Assembly (NCBI GenBank): GCA_951406725.2
Contig: OX597815.1
Span: 10,602,001-10,666,000 of the forward strand
DNA: 64,000 nucleotides
Reading direction: 5' to 3'
From: Octopus vulgaris
Lineage: Eukaryota
The position numbers and the translations under genes are program-made. The notes under the pieces were generated by a model. The model did not search any database. It was given only the letters and a program-made list of their open reading frames with translations, and was not told where the DNA came from. The first letter of the stretch is position 1. Each line of letters begins with the position of its first letter. Shown in pieces: positions 548-63,370 of the stretch.

Positions 548-551
<4 letters not shown>

Positions 552-750
552 CGGAGATGTACTCGCATAGCAAGTAATTTGATCTGAGATCGTGTGCTGA
601 AACGAAAACAATTGCAGCGTGGAAGGTGTTTATAAGCCATTTAAGAAACACACAAAAGCCGTTCGATTCACTTCAACATTTAAGTTTAATTTGTCAAAAT
701 ATTTTCGTCGCTAAAACTGCGACCTGTTCACTGACAAAGTCCGTGCTGCT

Positions 751-754
<4 letters not shown>
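548..754 (-). mobile_element. Short (TA)n-embedded hammerhead-bearing element (Penelope pLTR/retrozyme-like)
   Basis: About 205 bp between two (TA)n tracts; second copy at 10597-10800; contains a hammerhead fold at 690-738. Confidence 0.75.
690..738 (-). ncRNA. Minimal type-I hammerhead ribozyme, G3-C8 covariant core
   Basis: Minus strand: TTTGTCA-GTGAACA-G-GTCGC(AGTTTTA)GCGAC-GAA-AATATT-T-TGACAAA. 7-bp stem I, 5-bp stem II, palindromic stem III. Confidence 0.75.
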
Positions 755-7230: not shown

Positions 7231-7755
7231 TATTTCTTTAATACCCACAAGGGGCTAAACACAGAGAGGACAAACTAGAACAGACAAACGGATTAAGTCG
7301 ATTATATCGACCCCATTGCGTAACTGGTACTTAATTTATCGATGAAAGGCGGAATTTGTACTCGGCGGAATGTGAGCTCAGAACGTTACGGCAGACGAAA
7401 TACATATTTCTTTACTACCCACAAGGGGCTAAACACAGAGGGGACAAACAAGGACAGACAAAGGGATTAAGTCGATTACATCGACCCCAGTGCGTAACTG
7501 GTAATTAATTTATCGACCCCGAAAGGATGAAAGGCTAAATCGACCTCGGCGGAATTTGAACTCAAAACGTAACGGCAGACGAAATACATATTTCTTTACT
7601 ACCCACAAGGGGCTAAACACAGAGGGGACAAACAAGGACAGACAAAGGGATTAAGTCAATTACATCGACCCCAGTCCGTAACTGGTACTTATTTAATCGA
7701 CCCCGAAAGGATGAAAGGCAAAGTCGACCTCGGCAGAATTTGAACTTGCCGCCTT
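7231..7755 (-). mobile_element. SINE family B tandem trimer
   Basis: Three body units joined at CGAAATACATATTTC; approximate TSD TATTCTAT(C/G)AAATCA. Confidence 0.85.
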
Positions 7756-8319: not shown

Positions 8320-9248
8320 TATTTCTTTACTACCTACAAGGGGCTAAACACAGAGGGGACAAACAAGGACAGACAAACGGATTAAGTCGATTACATCGAC
8401 CCCAGTGCGTAACTGGTACTTAATTTATCGACCCCGAAAGGATGAAAGGTAAAGTCGACCTCGGCGGAATTTGAACTCGACAGACGAAATATTTCTTTCT
8501 TTACTACCCACAAGGGGCTAAACATAGAGGGGACAAACAAGGACAGACAAACGGATTAAGTCGATTACATCGACCCCAGTGCGTAACTGGTACTTTATCT
8601 ATCGACCCCGAAAGGATGAAAGGCAAAGTCGACCTCGGCGGAAGTTGAACTCGACAGACGAAATATTTCTTTCTTTACTACCCACAAGGGGCTAAACACA
8701 GAAGGGACAAGCAAGGACAGACAAACGGATTAAGTCGATTACATCGACCCCAGTGCGTAACTGGTACTTAATTTATCGACCCCGAAAGGATGAAAGGTAA
8801 AGTCGACCTCGGCGGAATTTGAACTCGACAGACGAAATATTTCTTTCTTTACTACCCACAAGGGGCTAAACATAGAGGGGACAAACAAGGACAGACAAAC
8901 GGATTAAGGCGATTACATCGACCCCAGTGCGTAACTGGTACTTAATTTATCAACCCCGAAAGGATGAAAGGTAAAGTCGACCTCGGCGGAATTTGAACTC
9001 GACAGACGAAATATTTCTTTCTTTACTACCCACAGGGGGCTAAACACAGAAGGGACAAACAAGGACAGACAAACGGATTAAGTCGATTACATCGACCGCA
9101 GTGCGTAACTGGTACTTAATTTATCGACCCCGAAAGGATGAAAGGTAAAGTCGACCTCGGTGGAATTTGAACTCGGAACGTAAATACCGGACGAAATACG
9201 GCTACGTATTTCGTCCGGCGTGCTAACGTTTCTGCCAACTCGCCGCCT
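8320..9248 (-). mobile_element. SINE family B concatemer (1 head + 5 bodies)
   Basis: About 173-bp units; TSD TTCCATAGT at 8311-8319 and 9256-9264. Confidence 0.9.
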
Positions 9249-10596: not shown

Positions 10597-10599
<3 letters not shown>

Positions 10600-10796
10600 C
10601 GGAGATGTACTTGCATAGCGAGTGACTTGATCTGAGATCGTGTACTGGAACGAAAACAATTGCAGCGTGGAAGGTGTTTATAAAACATTTAATAAACACA
10701 CAAAATATTTTGACAAATTAAATTTAAATGTTGAAGTAAATCTAACAGATTTTGTGTGTTTCTTAAATGGTTTATAAACACCTACTTCCACGCTGC

Positions 10797-10800
<4 letters not shown>
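10597..10800. mobile_element. Second copy of the 548-754 element, internally inverted (foldback)
   Basis: 10597-10705 colinear with 548-657; 10702-10800 is the reverse complement of about 610-705; flanked by (TA)n. Confidence 0.85.
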
Positions 10801-16275: not shown

Positions 16276-16367
16276 CACCATGTGTACTTCGTAAACACCA
16301 GTCGTTTTTTTCTCCATCTCCTGTTGCCCGCTTTGGGATCTTTCTTTCCTCTCTCTTCCTTCTTTAT

Positions 16368-16402
16368 GTTTCCGACGAAGAGCTCCGCTCGAAACGTCAT
16401 AC
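16368..16402 (+). ncRNA. Minimal hammerhead motif (U4C core variant)
   Basis: GTTT-CCGACGA-A-GAGC(TCC)GCTC-GAA-ACGT-C-ATAC; GUC site, palindromic ACGT stem III; sister copy at 24233-24267. Confidence 0.65.
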
Positions 16403-16491
16403 CTTCCTGCTTCCATATTTCCTGAGCGCCTATTAATAATAATACTGTAATTGTTCCACTGTTGTTGTTTTTTTGTTTTCCCGTTTGGATT

Positions 16492-16565
<74 letters not shown>

Positions 16566-17569: not shown

Positions 17570-17865
17570 CACGAATATAACAAGAAATAATAACTTTTTT
17601 TTTTTTTTGAAATGATGGATCTGGAAGTAAATAAAGCTCTAAATAACAGGGTGAAAATATTATGTTGAACACAGTTTTTATGGAAAAAGTAGGATACTCG
17701 TAGGATTCGAACCTACATTTTCTATAAACATGACAAGATTTCTACCATTGGTCTAAAGCAATCTGAATTTCTTTTTACATTTTTAGAAATTTTATTCTTA
17801 CCAGCTTTATTTGCTTCAAGATTCACCATTCCGAAAACAAAAGAAAATATTTCATATTCTCTCGA
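17570..17865. mobile_element. Foldback element enclosing a degenerate tRNA-like sequence
   Basis: Imperfect inverted arms (GATCTGGAAGTAAATAAAGCT / AGCTTTATTTGCTTCAAGATT) around 17695-17760, whose minus strand has TAGACCAATGGTAGA and a perfect T-arm GTAGG-TTCGAAT-CCTAC. Confidence 0.55.
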
Positions 17866-18364: not shown

Positions 18365-19068
18365 TGTATGTATGTATGTATGTATGTATGTATGTATGTA
18401 TGTATGTATGTATGTATGTATATGACTTGGAACTTTAGGCTCGCAAGCATTTTCGAACTATTACCCTTGCTTTTGCAAAAGTTTGATAATTATGTAACAT
18501 GTACTTTGTTAAGAAGTACTGAGTAATTCTTTAGTTTAATGTTAAATTGTCTTTATTACAATTTGCCATAAAAACAAACATTAATACATAATTAAATACA
18601 TTCATACATACATACAAATGTATATTTATCACCCGACGAGATACGTCTGCACCACCGGATACTCCTGAACCAGTTGTTGAGTGTCCCACAAGAGGAATCG
18701 ATGCTAGATGTGTCGAAACATTTGTTGTGATGAATAATATATTCTCGTATATTCCATCTTCTGTCTTTCATTTGTTATTTACAAATATATATATATATAT
18801 ATATTTACGGTCAGAAGATAAATTCTAACGCTATCATGTTCTTAACAATCAAATCAACCTCTCTGTCTGTATATCTACCCTCTTTATAATGTTAGCAAAC
18901 GAAATGGAAATAAGCATATGTATTGTCCCTTTGATGGAAGACTTCTATAAATGGCTGAAGATTGCTTAACATTTTGAAACTGATGCAATACTTACAATGT
19001 TTAATAAAATGATGTAGCATGAAACGATCGTACCGAATTACCGAATATATACTTGCTGCTTATTTTGG

Positions 19069-19114
<46 letters not shown>

Positions 19115-19819: not shown

Positions 19820-20476
19820 GTTAGACAGACTCTCAGATTAAGAAAACATTGAAAAATATTGAAAAATGCACGAAAATGTCTTGAAACTTTGTATGCAGGG
19901 AGCTTTAATAATCACTGCCCCGTGAGGGTGTGCGAGAGAGTGTGTGTGTGTTTATTTGTGTGTCTGTGTGTCATGCAGCTATAATATTGGCTAGAATCGC
20001 CAACTTGTGATTTGAAAGAGATTTGGAAGCCTTGTGTAGCAGGCAGGGCTATATGGTCGTATTCCACTCAAGGTGCATGCATAACTGCGTGGTTAAGAAG
20101 TTTTGCTTCACAACTACATGACTTCAATTTCAATCCCTTTGCACAGCACCTTGAGACAAGTGTCTTTTAACATAGCCCCCAGTTGACCTGCACCATTTGA
20201 GTGAAATTTAATAAATGGAAAGAAAGTGGAAAGTAGGGTTTTTGTCCTTGATTAGTAGACTAAATTCATCACCCAGTAATCAATATGATGTAAATATTTG
20301 ATAGGCCTCTAGTACGAGGATAACTTCCATCTTTCCCTCCAGCAGTGATGAAGGTTTTAAAAATTCATAGGAACATTATTTTTTTCTCCTCTGACTTAGT
20401 TATAAAAAATAGAATGAAAAAAGGTAGAATGGCATATTTTCTGTCTCGTGTGTTTGTTTTATATAACATCTCTAAA

Positions 20477-20695
20477 GGTGGCGAGCAGGCGGAATCGTTA
20501 GCACACCGGGAAAAGTGTTTAGCGACAATTCGTCCGTCTTTACGTTCTGAGTTGTTCAACTTCTGCCGTGGTCGACTTTGCTTTTCATCTTTTGAATGTC
20601 AATAAAATAAATACCAGTTGACCACAGGGGTCTATGTAATCGACTTAGCTTCTACCCCCAAATTCCTAACGTTTTACCGAAATTTGAAACCATTA
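20477..20695 (+). mobile_element. Diverged SINE, family B-related
   Basis: GGTGGCGAGCAGGCGGAATCGTTAGCAC...GTCGACTTTGCTTTTCATC. Confidence 0.75.
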
Positions 20696-20897
20696 TATAA
20701 CTTTTAATTATATTTAGTATATATAAATATAGTATATCTAATCTTACTTTCCTTCTGTCTCTACTTACCTGGCTGCCGGTCTATTTGTCTGTCTGTTTCT
20801 TTCTCCCCCCTCTCTCTCTCTTGATATATATATATATATATCTATATATATATATATATATATCACGAAATGTTAGCGCCAAGCAGTGTTTAGGCAG

Positions 20898-21248
20898 AAG
20901 CAAAATTAAGGGCAGTTGAAATATGTTTGTGATATAGTTCAACCTGTTAAAAAACAAAGATACTGAAGTTACCGCGAGAGAATATCTCTCTTATGGTAAA
21001 AGGTACGAAAACACCCGGTTTGTTCAGTGTCGCCATCTAGCAGGAATCTCAGACATCGATGTTTCGAGTTTATTGACTCTTGTCAGTGAGATGTAGCTAA
21101 GAGAGGCAACTCTGAACAGACTAGAGCAAACTGGGTGTTTTCACACCTTTTACCATACGAGATATATTTTCTCCATGGTAACTGCAGTGTTTTTGACTTT
21201 TAGCAGCTGAAGTATGTCAGAAACATATTTTAACTAACCTGAATTTTG

Positions 21249-21251
<3 letters not shown>
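20898..21251. mobile_element. (TA)n-flanked foldback element with hammerhead in its loop
   Basis: About 130-bp imperfect inverted arms (AAGCAAAATT...AAAACACCCGGTTTG / CAAACTGGGTGTTTT...AATTTTGCTT). Confidence 0.8.
21046..21092 (-). ncRNA. Minimal type-I hammerhead ribozyme (G8A)
   Basis: ATCTCA-CTGACAA-GAGT(CAATAA)ACTC-GAA-ACATCGATGT-C-TGAGAT: perfect stems I and II, 10-nt palindromic stem III, GUC site; one core deviation. Confidence 0.8.
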
Positions 21252-21292
<41 letters not shown>

Positions 21293-21295
<3 letters not shown>

Positions 21296-21447
21296 GTCCG
21301 TATACTGTGAGCAAGGGAGTCTACTGCTCCTTTTCTAGCCGTAGAGATACCTGTAGACCAATGGTTTCTGGGTAATTTCCCTTCGTCGATGCAGGACAAT
21401 CACCGGCTAGAGATAGCCACTCGCTCTTGCTCACAGTATATACTTTT
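21293..21447. mobile_element. Second (TA)n-adjacent foldback with hammerhead in its loop
   Basis: TATACTGTGAGCAAG (21301-21315) / CTTGCTCACAGTATA (21426-21440) plus TCTAGCCG / CGGCTAGA. Confidence 0.75.
21350..21395 (-). ncRNA. Minimal type-I hammerhead motif, variant core
   Basis: CCTGCA-TCGACGA-AGGG(AAATTA)CCCA-GAA-ACCATTGGT-C-TACAGG; GUC site, near-palindromic stem III. Confidence 0.65.
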
Positions 21448-21553
21448 AAAACGACACACAGTCGCTGATCTCGAAAAGAGAAAAACAACTAGTTTTAAAT
21501 CTCTGAGCGACCAATATGTGGTAACAGTACTGCACAGTAATGTCTGTTTGCCA

Positions 21554-21598
<45 letters not shown>

Positions 21599-21794
21599 GA
21601 AGAGAGAGAGGAGAGAGAAAGGGAAGAGAGAGAAGGGAGAGAGAGATGTCACTAAAGTGACTACAGGTGCTAGTGAGCACCAGCATTACTAGAAGTAAGA
21701 GCCAGAAGAACTCTTTGCCACTGGAAAGCACTTATGTAATGGTCCGTGCCGTTTGGTTGTAAATTGAGAATAATCCACCTTAATAATAATAATA

Positions 21795-23222: not shown

Positions 23223-23225
<3 letters not shown>

Positions 23226-23347
23226 TTTATTTAAAAGCAGAAGAAATATAACAAAAGCTGTTACTCAGAGTTTCACGTTCCCGTTCGTCGGAACGTGAAA
23301 CTCTGAGTAACAGCTTTTGTATATTTCTGATGCTTTTGAATAAAGCA
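23223..23347. repeat. Perfect 31-bp hairpin with truncated hammerhead, between (TA)n tracts
   Basis: 23251-23281 / 23290-23320 perfect inverted repeat with 8-nt loop; minus strand CCGACGA-ACG(GGAA)CGT-GAA-ACTCTGAGT-A-ACAG. Confidence 0.85.
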
Positions 23348-23415
23348 TATTACTCCACCTCTGATATTTGAGTACTCTTTTTTTCCACCTTGTTTCACAT
23401 TTATGTGCTTACTCC

Positions 23416-23460
<45 letters not shown>

Positions 23461-24115: not shown

Positions 24116-24232
24116 TATATATATTTCGTCTACCTTTCAACTTCTGTTCTTTCAACATGTGATCTCTTGAGCACCACCAGCAAAAAATTTTTTTCCTCTG
24201 TCTTCCCTTCTCGGGATCTTTCCTTCTCCTTT

Positions 24233-24267
24233 GTTTTCGACGAAGAGCTCCGCTCGAAACGTTAAAC
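24233..24267 (+). ncRNA. Minimal hammerhead motif (sister of 16368-16402)
   Basis: GTTT-TCGACGA-A-GAGC(TCC)GCTC-GAA-ACGT-T-AAAC within a (TA)n-bounded element at about 24125-24352. Confidence 0.6.
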
Positions 24268-24347
24268 CCTCCTTCCCTTCTTTCCTGAGTGTCAAATAAT
24301 ACTTTAATTGTTCCACGTCCTTTTTTTCTGTGTTTTCTTGTTTGGAT

Positions 24348-24407
<60 letters not shown>

Positions 24408-28012: not shown

Positions 28013-28083
28013 GGACTACATTTTCCAGTGTGTCTTTACCTGATTTCTATGACGTTTTGAAGATAGTCTAGCTGTGATGTCTA

Positions 28084-28292
28084 CAGGGTGTCCACAAAGT
28101 CTGGGTACATGGACTAAATAAAATCATAACATAAAGAATTAAATATAAGAAATAATAATTTCTTAAAGTATGTGTTAATCCCCATGTGGGTACATGGAGT
28201 AAATATAATCATAACATAAAGAATTAAATATAAGAAATCATTTCTTGAAGTATGTGTTAATTCCTATGTACCCAGACTTTGTGGACACCCCG
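28084..28292. mobile_element. Tc1/mariner-type MITE
   Basis: TIRs CAGGGTGTCCACAAAGTCTGGGTACAT / ATGTACCCAGACTTTGTGGACACCCCG, TA on both sides, internal ~85-bp tandem duplication. Confidence 0.9.
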
Positions 28293-28829
28293 TAGAAGGC
28301 TGGGTGCCTTCGCTGAGGCCTTCAGTGGAAGAGCGAAGTTAAACTTTACACTGTCGTGTTTCCCAGTTCAAGAATGGCATCGTTCAATGTAGCCTGAGTA
28401 TGATTTGAGAGAGTGTTGCAGTCATTTGTAACAGGTTGACTGACAAGTGAATTGTTATGGGAGTTTCCAAAATCTTCATTTGACTGTAGGTAAAACTGTT
28501 TATTATTTGATGGAGTGTGTTTTCTATTCATTATATAAATATATGGATCTCATAGAAATCAAACAAATAAGAGAGCTAAAAGAATATTTAAAAAACACGG
28601 ATTACTTTTTGATTTGTAATTAGTTTTTTTTCCCCACTCTCCAGTATATAATGTGTTCCAGGTGGTATATATTTGAAAAATCTTCTCATTTTAGTGACAG
28701 TGTGTGGGTGGGAAGAGAGAGAAAGAGAGAGAGAGAGACAGAGAGAGGATAGGGGGCAACAACAAGAAAGACAAATTTTAAAAAAAGGTAAGGTATTCTT
28801 AGTAATTCCGTAAATGAACTGAAGGGGGT

Positions 28830-30905: not shown

Positions 30906-32245
30906 AGGTGGCGAGCTGGTAGAAACGTTAGCACGCCGGGCGAAATGCATAGCGGTATTTCGTCTGTCTTTACGTTCTGAGTTCAAATTCCGCCGAGGCC
31001 GACTTTGCCTTTCATCCTTTCGGGGTCGATAAATTAAGTACCAGTTACGCACTGGGGTTGATGTAATCTACTTAATCCGTCTGTCTGTCCTTGTTTGTCC
31101 CCTCTGTGTTTAGCCCCTTGTGGGTAATAAAGAAATAGGTATTTCGGCTGTCTTTACGTTCTGAGTTCAAATTCCGCCGAGGTCGACTTTGCCTTTCATC
31201 CTTTCGGGGTCGATAAATTAAGTACCAGTTACGCACTGGGGTCGATGAAATCTACTTAATACCTATGTCTGTCCTTGTTTGTCCCCTCTGTGTTTAGCCC
31301 GTTGTGGGTAATAAAGAAATAGGTATTTCGTGTGTCTTTACGTTCTGAGTTCAAATTCCGCCGTGGCCGACTTTGCCTTTCATCCTTTCGGGGTCGATAC
31401 ACTAAGTACCAGTTACGCACTGGGGTCGATATAATCTACTTAATCCGTCTGTCTGTCCTTGTTTGTCCCCTCTGTGTTTAGCCCCTTGTGGGTAATAAAG
31501 AAATAAGTATTTCGGCTGTCTTTACGTTCTGAGTAACAAATTCCGCCGAGGCCGACTTTGCCTTTCATCCTTTCGGGGTCGATAAATTAAGTACCAGTTA
31601 TGCACTGGGGTCGATATAATCTACTTAATCCGTCTGTCTGTCCTTGTTTGTCGCCTTTGTGTTTAGCCCGTTGTGGGTAATAAAGAAATAGGTATTTCGT
31701 CTGCCGTTACGTTCTGAGTTCAAATTCCGCCGAGGCCGACTTTGCCTTTCATCCTTTCGGGGTCGATAAATTAAGTACCAGTTACGCACTGGGGCCGATG
31801 AAATCTACTTAATACCTATGTCTGTCCTTGTTTGTCCCCTCTGTGTTTAGCCCCTTGTGGGTAATAAAGAAATAGGTATTTCGGCTGTCTTTACGTTCTG
31901 AGTTCAAATTCCGCCGAGGTCGACTTTGCCTTTCATCCTTTCGGGGTCGATAAATTAAGTACCAGTTACACACTGGGGTCGATGTAATCGACTTAATACC
32001 TATGTCTGTCTTTGTTTGTCCCCTCTATGTTTAGCCCGTTGTGGGTAATAAAGAAATAGGTATTTCGTCTGTCTTTACGTTCTGAGTTCAAATTCCGCCG
32101 AGGCCGACTTTGCCTTTCATCCTTTCGGGGTCGATAAATTAAGTACCAGTTACGCACTGGGGTCGGTATAATCTACTTAATCCGTCGTCTGTCTGTCCTT
32201 GTTTGTCTCCTTTGTGTTTAGCCCGTTGTGGGTAGTAAAGAAATA
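30906..32245 (+). mobile_element. SINE family B concatemer (1 head + 7 bodies)
   Basis: About 184-bp units joined at GAAATA(GG/AG)TATTTC; 18-bp TSD GATGATTGATGAAGATGA at 30882-30899 and 32246-32263. Confidence 0.92.
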
Positions 32246-32282
32246 GATGATTGATGAAGATGATGATGATGAGGAGAATGAC

Positions 32283-34432: not shown

Positions 34433-34613
34433 TTCCTTCGTAACACAGTGTAGGTAAAGATGCACCGGAGCCTTTAGTCAACTGTCAAGTCACAAAGACC
34501 TCAGACAGATAATGCTTTCCTTAAGATGTAAAGTATTATCTGTCTGAGGTCCTTGTTGTGACTTGACTGATGACTAAAGACTCCAGTGCATTTTTACCTA
34601 CACTATCACGAAG

Positions 34614-34616
<3 letters not shown>
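34433..34616. repeat. ~86-bp-arm palindrome between (ATT)n and (AAT)n
   Basis: Arms 34433-34518 / 34530-34616 with 11-nt loop; the flanking microsatellites extend the symmetry. Confidence 0.9.
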
Positions 34617-37322: not shown

Positions 37323-37602
37323 TCTAATGAAGCAAATCGACTATGAATGTGAAGTAGAATTCTCCATGCATTGCCATAAATTTCTCCGTCCTTCTGCCTA
37401 GCTTCTAAAGATCTTCCTTGTTTCGGTTGAGTGTCCCCGTTCGGTTCCTCATCCCTGTTGCCACTTATTTGCTTGTCTCTCCTATTTTAATTTTGGCTTC
37501 AATATCAATACTTCAGTTGACACTAACATTACATCTGCTGACTCCTATCTTCCCTCTTTTTCTCATTAGTACAGGGCACATTACCCGAATTCCACATGTA
37601 TA

Positions 37603-37764
37603 GGCGCAGGAGTGGCTGTGTGGTAAGTAGCCTGCTTACCAACCACACGTTTCCGTGTTCAGTCCCACTGCGTAGCACCTTGGGAAAGTGTCTTCTACTA
37701 TAGCCTCGGGCCGACCAAAGCCTTGTGAGTGGATTTGGTAGACGGAAACTGAAAGAAGCCTGTC

Positions 37765-37813
<49 letters not shown>

Positions 37814-37974
37814 TGCAGGAGTGGCTGTGTGGTAAGTAGCTTGCTTACCAACCACACGTTTCCGTGTTCAGTCCCACTGCGTAGCACCTTGGGAAAGTGT
37901 CTTCTACTATAGCCTCGGGCCGACCAACGCCATGTGAGTGGATTTGGTAGACGGAAACTGAAAGAAGCGTATCG

Positions 37975-38018
<44 letters not shown>

Positions 38019-38178
38019 TGCAGGAGTGGCTGTGTGGTAAGTAGCTTGCTTACCAACCACACGTTTCCGTGTTCAGTCCCAGTGCCTAGTACCTTGGAAA
38101 AGTGTCTTCTACTATAGCCTCGGGCTGACCAAAGCCTTGTGAGTGGATTTGGTAGACGGAAACTGAAAGAAGCCTGTC

Positions 38179-38257
<79 letters not shown>

Positions 38258-43877: not shown

Positions 43878-44947
43878 CATGGGCGAGTCCAAAATTAAAC
43901 TCTCTCTCGTTTCTGTAATTTATTAAAACAAAAGCAGGGGTACAACAATTAAATCCATTTTCGACATAGTCTCCTTGCTTTTCGATGCACTTCCATCGGT
44001 CCACAGGTTTGGTTGTTCCATCGAAGAAGAAGCTTTTCACTGGTCGCGCAATCATTTATGACCGCTTCTTGCGCTTCTTCGTTCGTAGCAAATCCACGAA
44101 CTTGTGAATGATATTTGAGCGGTCCAAGAGGTGATAGTCGGAAGTAGCAAGATGTAGACTGTATGCAAGGAACTCCAGTAATTCGAAACCCAATTTTCCA
44201 GCGATTTCAATGCTGTAAGAGGCTATATATGGGCGTGTATTACCATGCAACAATAACACTTGCTTTGTCAATAGACCTTAGCGCTTAGCTCAAATTTCTG
44301 TTTTCAGTTTGTTAACCATCCTTTCACTTTAGCCTACACTGGTGTACGTAGAAACCTTCTCCAGGTAATATTCCAACATAGCCCCTTTTGCCTTCTTTAA
44401 AACGGATAGCGACACTTTTTCTGCGGAAAGTTGGGGCTTCAATTTCTTATTCACTGGTGATTCCGGGTGTCTCCACTCCGTACTCTGCTTTTTGGATTCT
44501 GGTTCAAAGTGACGGACCCAAATCATTCGTCGGTTCACCAGAACCATATCCGGCGGCACAGTTGTAGTAGTTGATGGGCATCACCCTCCCTCCTCGGGCT
44601 TAACGCTTTTCATGCCATTTTAAAACTTCTCGATCCATTCATACACACTTGAACGCGGTTGAGTACTGTCCTCTTAATGTACTTAAAGCCTGCGATCACT
44701 TTCAGCTCCTGACACACCTTCAAACTAGAGAATTTGGATTACTGATCTCTGTTCTTCCTTGGTGCACACAGCCGGTGGAGCGGTCATGTTTATTCTGTAT
44801 CACAAGAAAGCAAAGTGAGGCGATCAAAGTCAAGCCTCGGTTATGCAACCACAAGAGTACCACCTTGTAGCACGCGAGCGCTGGAAGTAGTGCGCCAACC
44901 TAAAGAAAGTTTCAGCGCAAGGGCAGATAATGTTTGACTACCCCGAG
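43878..44947 (-). mobile_element. Mariner (DD34D-type) transposon, decayed
   Basis: WVRHFEPESKKQSTEWRHPESP, LLLHGNTRPY, LAYSLHLATSDYHL and RWKCIEKQGDYVE motifs; degenerate TIRs with TA flanks. Confidence 0.9.
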
Positions 44948-48121: not shown

Positions 48122-48622
48122 TTTTTTTATTTTATTTTATTTTATTTAGTTTCAGCTCACAAGCTGTGGCCATGCTGGGGCATCGCCATTTGGTGTTGCT
48201 ACATGATTTTACTTCACGAATGCTTTTTAGCAAATGCCATCTGGTGCATGAGAGAGTTCGATGCAGCTGCCCTCATCTGCACCTCCTGCTGTGAAGTTGG
48301 TTCATCTGGGACACCTGACAAGAAGAGATCCAGTTTCATTTTTAAATACATCTGCATCCACCCCATGCAGGTCTCTTAGGTTCTTCGGGAGGATATTGAA
48401 GAACTGTGGGCCTCGGAAGCCCAGGCTATCACAGTATCTTGTCCTACAACTTGATGGCAAATTTGGAGTCCTTGGCACTATGCAGTGGCGCCCAGTTCTG
48501 GCATTTGTGTAACTCTCAATGCCAAAGTTTGGGACAAGTCCTTCTAGGATCTTCCAGGTGTATATTATGGCATATCTTTCTCGCCTACGCTCTAAGGAAT
48601 AGAGTCTCAATCTCTTGAGTCT
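48122..48622 (-). mobile_element. CR1/L2-type LINE 3' fragment
   Basis: LRLYSLERRRERYAIIYTWKILEGLVPN...RGPQFFNILPKNLR; tail CCCCAGCATGGCCACAGC..GCTGAAAC. Confidence 0.9.
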
Positions 48623-49192: not shown

Positions 49193-49780
49193 GTGGAGGC
49201 GCAATGGCCCAGTGGTTAGGGTAGCGGACTCGCGGTCGGAGGATCGCGGTTTCGATTCCCAGACCGGGCGTTGTGTGTGCTTATTGAGCGAAAACACCTA
49301 AAAGCTCAACGAGGCTCCGGCAGCGGGTGGTGGCGACCCCTGTTGTACTCTTTCAGAAAGGCGGCGAGCTGGCAGAAACGTTAGCACGCCGGGCGAAATG
49401 CTTAGTGGTATTTCGTCTGCCGTTACGTTCTGAGTTCAAATTCCGCCGAGTACAAATTCCGCCTTTCATCCTTTGCCTTTCATCGATAAATTAAGTACCA
49501 GTTACACACTGGGGTTGATATAATCGATTTAATCCGTTTTGTCTGTCCTTGTTTGTCCCCTCTGTGTTTAGCCCCTTGTGGGTAGTAAAGAAATAGGTAT
49601 TTCGTCTGCCGCTACATTCTGAGTTCAAATTCCGGCGAGGTCGACTTTGCCTTTCATCCTTTCGGGGTTGATTAAATAAGTACCAGTTACGCACTGGGGT
49701 CGATGTAATCGACTTAATCCGTTTTGTATGTCCTTGTTTGTCCCCTCTTTGTTTAGCCCCTTGTGGGCAGTAAAGAAATA
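49193..49780 (+). mobile_element. Composite SINE C head + SINE B (2 bodies)
   Basis: Family C 5' part to about 49355 then family B; whole flanked by GGTATAGAGAT (49180-49190, 49781-49791). Confidence 0.85.
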
Positions 49781-49972
49781 GGTATAGAGATAAGTGTCGT
49801 AAAGAGAACAGAAGCGCTCGTTAATTCTTCCCGTGATCTACAAATTTTTGGAAGGTGTCTGAGTTACTCTTGAAACAATCAGTATTACTGTTGGTTATGT
49901 TGTATGATCACGTCGCAGAAAATTCTGGCTTGAGGCGTTACCGAAGATCGTGTACTCATAGTTTTAAACATA

Positions 49973-50415
49973 TCCTTAAATCCTTAAATCCTTAAAAATG
50001 TTTTAGCCCGAAGGCCGCGGCCATGCTGGGGCACCACCGCTGAATGAGCTACACTAGTTTGTGAATCCACCTCTGATACGTGGCACTTGATCAACAAGGG
50101 AGTTCGATGCTGCTGCCCGCATCCGTGTCTCCTGTCGTGAGGTAGGTTCATCTGGGACTCCCAACAAGAAGAGATCCAGTTTAGTTTTAAAGAAACCCAC
50201 ATCCACACCATGTAAGTCTCTCAGGCATTTAGGGAGGATGTTAAAGAGCTGTGGTCCTCTGAGACCCAAGCTGTTGCAGTATCTGGACCTGTATTTTGAT
50301 GGTGATGTTGGAATCCTTGGCACCACGCAGCGGCGCCCCGTTCTGCGGTTGGAGTAACTTTGAATGCCAAAGTTTGGGACAAGACCCTCCAGGATTTTCC
50401 AGATGTATATGTGTA
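49973..50415 (-). mobile_element. CR1/L2-type LINE 3' fragment
   Basis: IWKILEGLVPNFG..RGPQLFNILPKCLRDLHGVDVGFFKTKLDLFL; (TTAAGGAT)n tail. Confidence 0.9.
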
Positions 50416-51102
50416 CTCCTAAATATATTTTATTGTATAGACGTTACTATTTTGGAAATAAAATATTCTAGCCTAATCAGCTGGTCTTCATATATAGGTC
50501 GCCCGCATGGAGAACCTATGAACTGAATAATCATTAATTAGAAAGGTTACTCCAGGTATACACGTGTACGTGTTTGACTCTGTGTGTGTGTGCGTGTGTG
50601 TGAGAGTTTTATGAGAGATTGTGTGTCTGTACGAGCGTGCTTTAGCTTACACAATGTAACTGGTTAGTGTTAATATTTCTTGACATCGGAGGTCACAAAG
50701 GGTGCTGAAGTAGATGGCTGTATTTAGTTGCGTCCTGTTATGGTCTCATTTCAAGTCTAAACAAGATTAATTTTACCTTTCATCTAGGTTCTAGGTTTGC
50801 AAAAAAGTAAATGCTAATTATATACTGTGGTCGATTCATTTGACTATACTTTCCTTCAAAGTGTGTGAGAAATCATTGGTGCTGTTATTTTCGGGTTGGC
50901 GGAATAGTAAAATGGTAATGCTAGACCTAACGTCTTCTTACTGAGAGACGTCCATTTATACAAGGAGTGCGCATGCCGCTGGCGCCGACATCGTTCTTTC
51001 ATCTGTTCAGGTTCGATAAAATAGGTAGAACTCAGACATGCAAAACACCTACAGTATATCGATCTGTTATATAACAAATCATCACAAATTGTTGATTTTT
51101 GC

Positions 51103-62749: not shown

Positions 62750-63370
62750 GTGCTCAGGTGCACCACAACTTGTCAAAAGTGCGTGTAAAGCATATGCAGC
62801 AATGTACAAATGTCTGGGAAGTGAATGAGTCAGATACATGCTTGCGTGTGTATGGAGGGGAGAAATTCAGGTGTAGTGTTGGAAAATCTCAGGAAGCATG
62901 AAAGTTTTGAAGGATGCAGTGCTCCGACAACTAACAATAGATGCCGGCAGTTTGTTCCATGCTTCAGTAACTCTTAGCATGAAAAAATGTTTCCGTAAGT
63001 CATGGGAGCTGTGCTGTTTTCTGACTTTGTAAACATGTCCACGGGTGTTAGACAGATGGAGTTTGAAAAGGTGCTCAGAGTAATTGTTGCGTGTGTATGG
63101 AGGGAAGAAAATCAGGTGTAGTGTTTGCGAATCTCATGAAGCATGGAAGTTTTGAAGGATGCAGTGCTCCGACAACTAACAACTGATGCCAGCAGTTTGT
63201 TCCATACTTCAGCAACTCTTAGCGTGAGAAAATCTTTCCGAAAGTCATGGGAGCTGTGCTGTTTTCTGACTTTGTAAACATGTCCACGGGTGTTAGACAG
63301 GTGGAGTTTGAAAAGGTGCTCAGAGTTATTGTTTGTGAGATGATTTGTGCTAAACAATAAGCACAATGCC
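62750..63370 (-). mobile_element. CR1 LINE 3' end, tandemly duplicated
   Basis: LFKLHLSNTRGHVYKVRKQHSSHDFRKDFLTLRVAEVWNKL; 62842-63087 repeated at 63088-63332. Confidence 0.9.

Follow-up and report, generated by a model that had tools for sequence, protein, structure and literature searches.

What leaves two unrelated foldbacks side by side in one run of TA repeats, each with a hammerhead ribozyme at the apex of its hairpin? An earlier note on this 64,000-nt window of Octopus vulgaris DNA, the whole stretch analysed here, described such a pair as parted by (TA)n alone, placed a minus-strand GUC-site hammerhead in each loop, and took the foldbacks for rod-like RNAs reminiscent of retrozymes or viroids. 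The description stands: the two units, E1 and E2, share no similarity, and nothing but a (TA)n tract lies between them (Table 1). The interpretation holds in part. E1 and E2 are probably separate, likely inactive insertions in one (TA)n tract, each built from two hammerhead-bearing 3' ends of a Penelope-like element (PLE) joined head to head.

The larger foldback, E1 (20898-21251), is flanked by (TA)n and has arms at 20898-21051 and 21087-21251 that are 80.9% complementary when gaps are set aside (123 Watson-Crick pairs, 29 mismatches and 15 gap columns); its extension brings the total to 387 bp. The minus-strand folding that the earlier note proposed as a check confirms the hairpins, at -143.7 kcal/mol for E1 against -71.6 +/- 5.0 for shuffles (z -14.5) and at z -6.6 for E2. 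The plus strand of E1 folds more strongly than the minus strand (-173 vs -144), and the arm mismatches are strand-symmetric, lacking the bias that RNA selection or editing would leave, with 6 G.U pairs on the minus strand, 8 on the plus strand and 15 transversions (p 0.79), a comparison of low power drawn from few sites in a single copy. No coding signal was found between the E1 arms, where the frames are short and each shows four synonymous changes, none being favoured.

Both hammerheads have the type I layout, with three helices round the core, ends in helix I, GAAA, A15.1-U16.1 and H17. In E1, helix I pairs at six of six positions (21092-21087 with 21051-21046), helix II at four of four beneath a 6-nt loop ending in A and followed by GAAA, and helix III is a perfect 10-nt palindrome beside a GUC site with C17 at 21052. 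An A at position 8 (G8A) is the sole change in the core (21086-21080), just as the earlier note had said of these otherwise perfect stems. Its suggestion of CpG decay fits as well, given that G8A sits in a CpG context, as do just 3 of the 14 transitions in the arms. Positions C3 and G8 of hammerheads pair and covary (PMC3088659, in the part covered), so that the C3.A8 of E1, which lacks the Watson-Crick 3-8 pair, is predicted to be inactive or nearly so, a decayed motif. The palindrome would form a self-duplex at -12.9 kcal/mol, helix III has a probability of about 0 in the monomer, and the hammerhead fold lies 3.8 kcal/mol above the minimum-energy fold.

E2 (21291-21449) is 159 bp long, or 263 bp with its extension, and its arms are 74% complementary. 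It is weak by alignment, being absent from a BLAST foldback scan and having a self-inverted score of 30 where non-foldback segments score 13-34. The claim of a hammerhead in both units holds as described for E1, and for a more damaged motif in E2: the core has U3 and C4, leaving U3.G8 without a Watson-Crick 3-8 pair, helix I carries a C.A mismatch, and an extra A precedes GAAA. Helix II has 3 bp and a hexaloop ending in A, helix III is a 9-nt odd palindrome, and the minus-strand GUC site has C17 at 21356. The hammerhead fold lies 5.7 kcal/mol above the minimum, with a monomer helix III probability again near 0, and the E2 ribozyme is predicted to be weak, a decayed motif impaired by several changes. 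Common to E1 and E2 are U at 1.7, the helix II hexaloop ending in A and a palindromic helix III; U1.7 and the loop-terminal A are the bases of a loop-loop contact (PMC11875169, in the part covered). A promoter scan upstream of E2, with a bacterial model ill-suited to animal DNA, gave nothing above shuffles, and blastn of 20864-21553 against a phage collection gave zero matches.

Table 1. Features of the two foldbacks and of related inserts (window positions; +/- strand).
Feature	Position	Strand	Basis or remark
(TA)n left of E1, probable target site	20843..20863		sequence
E1 one-sided extension, 34 bp	20864..20897	-	length and position match the 30-40 bp PLE 'tail'
E1 long copy = left arm, 3' of cleavage site	20898..21051	-	arm alignment
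E1 extended helix I with internal loops	21022..21121	-	probably native RNA structure of the element
E1 type I hammerhead	21046..21092	-	helices, core, U1.7 at 21045
E1 unpaired 10-nt block	21122..21131	-	inferred head-to-head junction, ~45 nt upstream of core
E1 inverted short copy = right arm	21132..21251	+	~82% identity to left arm
(TA)n tract parting E1 from E2	21251..21291		sequence
E2 long copy, 3' of cleavage site	21292..21355	-	arm alignment
E2 degenerate type I hammerhead	21350..21395	-	C17 at 21356, U1.7 at 21349
E2 inverted short copy	21422..21449	+	25/28 aligned positions match outer left arm; junction position inferred
E2 one-sided extension, 105 bp	21450..21554	+	longer than published tail
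(TA)n right of E2	21555..21594		sequence
E3 foldback and 72-bp extension, (TA)n-bounded	23225..23417		arms 94.6%
F106 foldback and 61-bp extension, (TA)n-bounded	10598..10799		arms 95.8%
S550, unfolded (TA)n-bounded sister of F106	550..754	-	~91% identity
H24, unfolded insert ending at (TA)n	24138..24351	+	minimal hammerhead, U3/C4 core at 24237; left end approximate
H16, sister of H24	16290..16496	+	78.6% over 140 nt; C3/C4 core; left end approximate

Are these two units alone in the window? Among the 21 segments of 60-700 nt that lie between (TA)7+ tracts, three are clear foldbacks (E1, E3 and F106), and E2 joins them on the strength of its fold alone. All four bear an extension at one end only, measuring 34 bp in E1, 105 in E2, 72 in E3 and 61 in F106; the extensions of E1 and E2 and the further members of the class go beyond what the earlier note had seen. 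E3, a young foldback, retains on its minus strand a U4C core (23291-23285), a 3-bp helix II, GAAA, an odd palindrome and a GUA site (A17 at 23262), its helix I 5' strand having been supplanted by the inverted copy, which joins at core positions 3-4. In F106 the long arm begins inside the family's hammerhead, at the GAAA box and helix III palindrome, and the two copies overlap by 4 nt where they meet.

S550, the sister of F106, has the same extension without an inverted arm. It carries a complete type I hammerhead, with a G3-C8 core (731-725), 7 bp in helix I, 5 bp in helix II, a 6-nt palindrome and N17 at 697, and this intact-looking motif is the best candidate for an active ribozyme in the window. 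The F106 arms are 95.8% alike to each other, and 92.9% and 88.5% to S550; being closer to each other than to their sister, they indicate that the foldback of that family arose at or after insertion and was not a fixed unit. The earlier note had tied its reading to the recurrence of inverted arms and hammerhead stems in other copies. In the F106/S550 family one copy lacks the inverted arm, the outcome that the earlier note had named as refuting, so that for this family its reading falls on its own terms; for the pair itself, BLAST against the window gave no second copy of E1 or E2 and no match of one to the other. The minimal hammerheads of the unfolded pair H24 and H16 have a 2-nt palindromic loop 3. 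U4C is a known natural variant (PMC3088659, in the part covered), and the C3/C4 of H16 against the U3/C4 of H24 suggests that U4C is native here and that the U3 of E2 is decay.

Two other segments stand near this class. A 265-bp (TA)n-bounded segment at 18805-19069 has GAAA, an 8-nt palindrome and UA 38 nt before the TA tract; it is possibly a very decayed member, though such half-motifs are common background. The 180-bp foldback at 34435-34614, with 89% arms between (ATT)n and (AAT)n, has neither hammerhead nor tail and was left out; it is perhaps the inverted 3' end of another retroelement.

Which known process yields this architecture? In the parts of the PLE literature covered here, PLE insertions often consist of an inverted 5'-truncated copy with a 30-40 bp tail on one end, hammerheads lie in the pLTRs, and (TA)n is the target in the Naiad and Hydra clades (10.1101/2021.04.23.441226, Craig et al.). 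Where inverted pLTRs stand head to head, with a palindromic junction and a tail of 31 bp, self-priming has been proposed as the cause (PMC3846280, Arkhipova et al.). In AT-rich DNA a PLE protein cleaves both strands and extends them, using uncleaved RNA; the tail corresponds to the gap between two internal RNA start sites and, by our subtraction, sits about 85-92 nt beyond the ribozyme's cut (PMC11167929, Frangieh et al.). A palindromic helix III is a signature of PLE and metazoan type I motifs, for which a dimer model exists, and many solo hammerheads are probably from truncated PLEs (PMC4209133, Cervera and de la Pena). PLEs also make up a major class of repeats in O. vulgaris, in part of recent origin (PMC13282606; PMC8967140).

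The octopus units match this picture. Like Adineta vaga Pen2a and the TA-targeting Neptune, Hydra and Naiad PLEs, as described in the parts covered, they combine an inverted truncated 3' copy, a one-sided tail and (TA)n flanks, and like PLEs with head-to-head pLTRs they carry, close to the 3' end, a type I hammerhead whose helix III is palindromic, as seen in E1, E2, E3 and S550. The inverted truncated copy is read directly from F106 against S550 and by analogy in E1, E2 and E3; the greater likeness of the F106 arms to each other than to S550 fits duplication at insertion. Differences from the described elements are that the octopus units have no ORF, that tails reach 105 bp, only the E1 tail (one of four) falling within the published 30-40 bp, and that Naiads themselves lack hammerheads. 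Poseidon PAc of Anolis carolinensis (PMC11167929, in the part covered) likewise has its ribozyme roughly 90-130 nt from the insertion end and an AT-rich target, with the tail between two RT start sites; breaking its 3-8 pair by G8C or C3G abolishes cleavage, which the double change partly restores. The PAc ORF starts inside the ribozyme, whereas E1 has short frames without synonymous bias, and PAc favours an ATT site, whereas the octopus units lie in (TA)n. The solo PLE hammerheads of Schistosoma mansoni (PMC4209133, in the part covered) are similarly dispersed single motifs, probably from truncated PLEs, with covariant 3-8 cores; that genome also has hammerhead pairs on opposite strands 100-700 bp apart, where E1 and E2 keep one at the apex. 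No RT or GIY-YIG domain (Pfam) was found in 150 of the 239 low-repeat ORFs of at least 55 aa (the 89 shortest left out), and since no PLE coding domain is present in the ORFs scanned, descent from an autonomous PLE would have to be judged from architecture.

The proposed course of events is as follows. A PLE protein supplied in trans would open the (TA)n tract, and cDNA synthesis would begin at the 3' end of the element, with or without the tail. Two cDNA tracts would then be made, either each DNA end priming its own or a first tract folding back to prime a second; both would halt early, often at the structured ribozyme, and be linked through their 5' ends. Of the two, the longer copy would retain the ribozyme, which for that reason would end up at the apex, and the tail would remain on one copy only. 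The parent element's ribozyme would cleave in dimeric form, two copies pairing through the palindrome of helix III. The G8A change of E1 disrupts the 3-8 pair, and several changes in E2 weaken the motif.

Does the ribozyme itself set the position of the junction? In all four (TA)n-bounded foldbacks the inverted junction lies in the ribozyme core or within about 45 nt of it. Measured from position 3, the long copy has its 5' end about 45 nt upstream in E1 and about 33 nt upstream in E2, as placed by alignment breaks; in E3 that end coincides with position 3 and in F106 it falls about 25 nt downstream, while S550, which is unfolded, stops 23 nt upstream. A (TA)n tract follows the cleavage site at a distance of 65-189 nt in each of the four descriptor matches, against a background of 10.5% of positions, an association that is biased because two of the motifs were found by looking beside TA tracts. 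In both E1 and E2 the innermost ~30 bp of the rod, which contain internal loops, would be native extended helix I, and the outer arms a duplication made at the DNA level. An initial idea, that fold-back is primed by helix I in every case, was abandoned, given joins at core positions 3-4 in E3 and at the GAAA box and helix III in F106. Stalling at the structured ribozyme is the favoured cause of the long-copy ends, and the plain alternative is that the RNAs simply begin shortly upstream of it. A tentative proposal, less likely than not, is that PLE reverse transcription halts and rejoins at the helices of the ribozyme; this would account for the palindromes at PLE junctions. In the published head-to-head PLEs, as far as covered, the junction is not linked to a ribozyme, unlike in the octopus foldbacks.

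Could E1, and perhaps E2, instead be a solitary monomer from a rod-shaped retrozyme of the non-LTR kind, or from a fixed foldback family, with the entire hairpin, ribozyme included, as the mobile RNA and a TA-targeting PLE to move it? This is unlikely. Metazoan non-LTR retrozymes of mussel, coral, axolotl and Xenopus, in the parts of that literature covered, are non-coding, 170-400 nt long, canonical type I and PLE-related; both E1 and E2 with their extensions match that size and geometry, and E1 falls within the 350-390 bp of mussel retrozymes (PMC7229834). The U1.7 and loop-terminal A of both motifs, together with their geometry, likewise have a closer tie in the literature to retrozymes than to the minimal motifs of PLEs (PMC7229834, in the part covered), which counts against the PLE reading, as does the lack of a second E1 or E2 copy in the window. 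A third point on that side is that the E1 ribozyme is kept better than the arms, with one defect in about 40 constrained bases, fewer than the 18-19% arm divergence predicts (P about 0.06-0.10); this could reflect the earlier reader's having picked the best-kept case, or two different templates. Solo retrozyme monomers are common (10.64898/2026.07.22.740005, in the part covered). Against all this, retrozymes are tandem direct repeats that yield circular RNA (PMC7229834; 10.64898/2026.07.22.740005), whereas the octopus units are single, with long inverted arms and tails, and no tandem array was found over E1 or E2. The ribozyme strand of E1 shows no G.U bias (at low power) and folds less well than the other strand, and the F106 family also exists unfolded. 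E3 and F106 show this build with the ribozyme cut in half, a form that cannot have been selected as a unit.

Hammerhead viroids and plant LTR retrozymes also offer a highly self-paired RNA with a hammerhead. In the parts of those accounts covered, sequence complementary to the ribozyme keeps it blocked within the circle, whereas the type I motif found here lies in chromosomal DNA, and the LTRs of plant retrozymes carry type III motifs and are flanked by target duplications of 4 bp (PMC7229834; 10.64898/2026.07.22.740005). What survives of the retrozyme or viroid likeness is the presence of genuine type I hammerheads that belong to the retroelement and retrozyme world; the rod as a selected RNA is not supported, the mismatches being symmetric, the plus strand folding better and the units being non-tandem. 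There is a slim chance that in the E1 family the foldback of ~390 nt, with its canonical apical hammerhead, is an inherited mobile unit, a rod-shaped retroelement that arose at a head-to-head PLE junction and that PLE proteins then spread among (TA)n tracts.

A DNA transposon offers a different account, in which the foldbacks are MITEs, with long terminal inverted repeats and a TA target duplication, that enclose a hammerhead by chance. The foldback shape, the TA flanks, the non-coding sequence and a mariner-type transposase fragment in the window would all suit it, but the inverted repeat stops 34-105 bp short of one end in four of four units, unlike terminal inverted repeats, S550 is single-armed, and this account gives no reason for a whole or half hammerhead at each apex. 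MITEs are accordingly an improbable source. Terminal inverted repeats that are MITE-like do occur in the window at 28080-28296 (31 bp) and 17611-17830 (28 bp); these are short, not (TA)n-bounded and without hammerhead.

Less probable again is a chance origin, in which the loops of ordinary inverted duplications happen to resemble hammerheads; any foldback supplies helix I for free. A first descriptor gave three matches in the window against a mean of 0.025 per shuffle, with none of 200 shuffles yielding an E1-level or E2-level motif, and a wider one gave four against 0.1, with none of 300 shuffles reaching four; these nulls are optimistic, because both descriptors were written after the motifs were known. 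The degenerate state of E2 is in keeping with chance, as is Rfam, whose hammerhead families gave no match in the whole window at gathering score and none at E<=10 in 20400-21700 or 21020-21120, where weak matches were to other families only. A scan for half-motifs (GAAA, palindrome and UH) returned dozens of background matches and is no evidence by itself, and a MAFFT alignment of five motifs placed S550 wrongly. Against chance stand the features that recur outside the descriptor (U1.7, the hexaloop ending in A, G10.1-C11.1) and the related cores of sister copies. In all, at least five unrelated hammerhead-bearing insert families occur within 64 kb, and Rfam misses every one.

The last proposal, that one minus-strand transcript through E2 and E1 is cut twice to release, and perhaps circularise, a 304-nt RNA, is scarcely credible: the motifs share a strand, lie 304 nt apart between cleavage sites and enclose a fragment that folds at -79 against -56 +/- 4.5 for shuffles, though with a self-pairing TA tract included, but a shared strand has a probability of one half, the intersite piece joins unrelated halves with differing helix III palindromes into a predicted fold that is branched and not a rod, both cores are damaged, and the hammerhead folds cost +3.8 and +5.7 kcal/mol. 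Joint action of the neighbours, which the earlier note thought might be co-transcribed, is backed by nothing but the shared strand.

The setting of the two insertions is repeat-dense and microsatellite-rich, short tandem repeats accounting for 15,282 masked bases out of 64,000. Tandem arrays of dispersed repeats with 174-245 bp units, which we take to be SINE-like, lie at 7361-7746, 8322-9175, 30954-32246, 49407-49785, 37599-38220 and 62842-63333; no hammerhead was found in these six. A diverged copy of one such repeat occupies 20474-20700, just left of E1. Transposon remnants at 44332-44580, 50057-50443, 48302-48622 and 2384-2935 comprise the mariner-type transposase fragment (Pfam PF01359), the only Pfam match above cut-off in the 150 of 239 ORFs scanned, and C-terminal fragments that are presumably LINE-like, their protein matches being unnamed or hypothetical; that at 50057-50443 has 20 protein matches, in which Octopus vulgaris, at 56% identity, is the sole named eukaryote.

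What does the locus add? The build has already been described for PLEs, and the locus alone is therefore of modest weight. A literature search of incomplete coverage, limited to main texts, returned no report of octopus hammerheads and none of PLE junctions located at the ribozyme, and the covered main text of the O. vulgaris repeat paper (PMC13282606) does not contain the word 'ribozyme'. S550 appears to carry a natural G3-C8 core: the covariant core of Schistosoma mansoni is U3-A8 (PMC4209133, in the part covered), and the literature covered, which leaves the main survey of PLE hammerhead variants outside, gives natural U3-A8 and engineered G3-C8 only. If the E1 foldback were indeed mobile, it would form a bridge joining PLE ends, retrozymes and viroid-like rods. 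In the PLE literature covered, the formation of inverted structures and the role of the ribozyme are both stated as open, and short, high-copy inserts such as these make the junctions countable. The value of the finding rests mostly on the link between ribozyme and junction and on the G3-C8 copy, and also on the density, within 64 kb, of insert families that Rfam misses.
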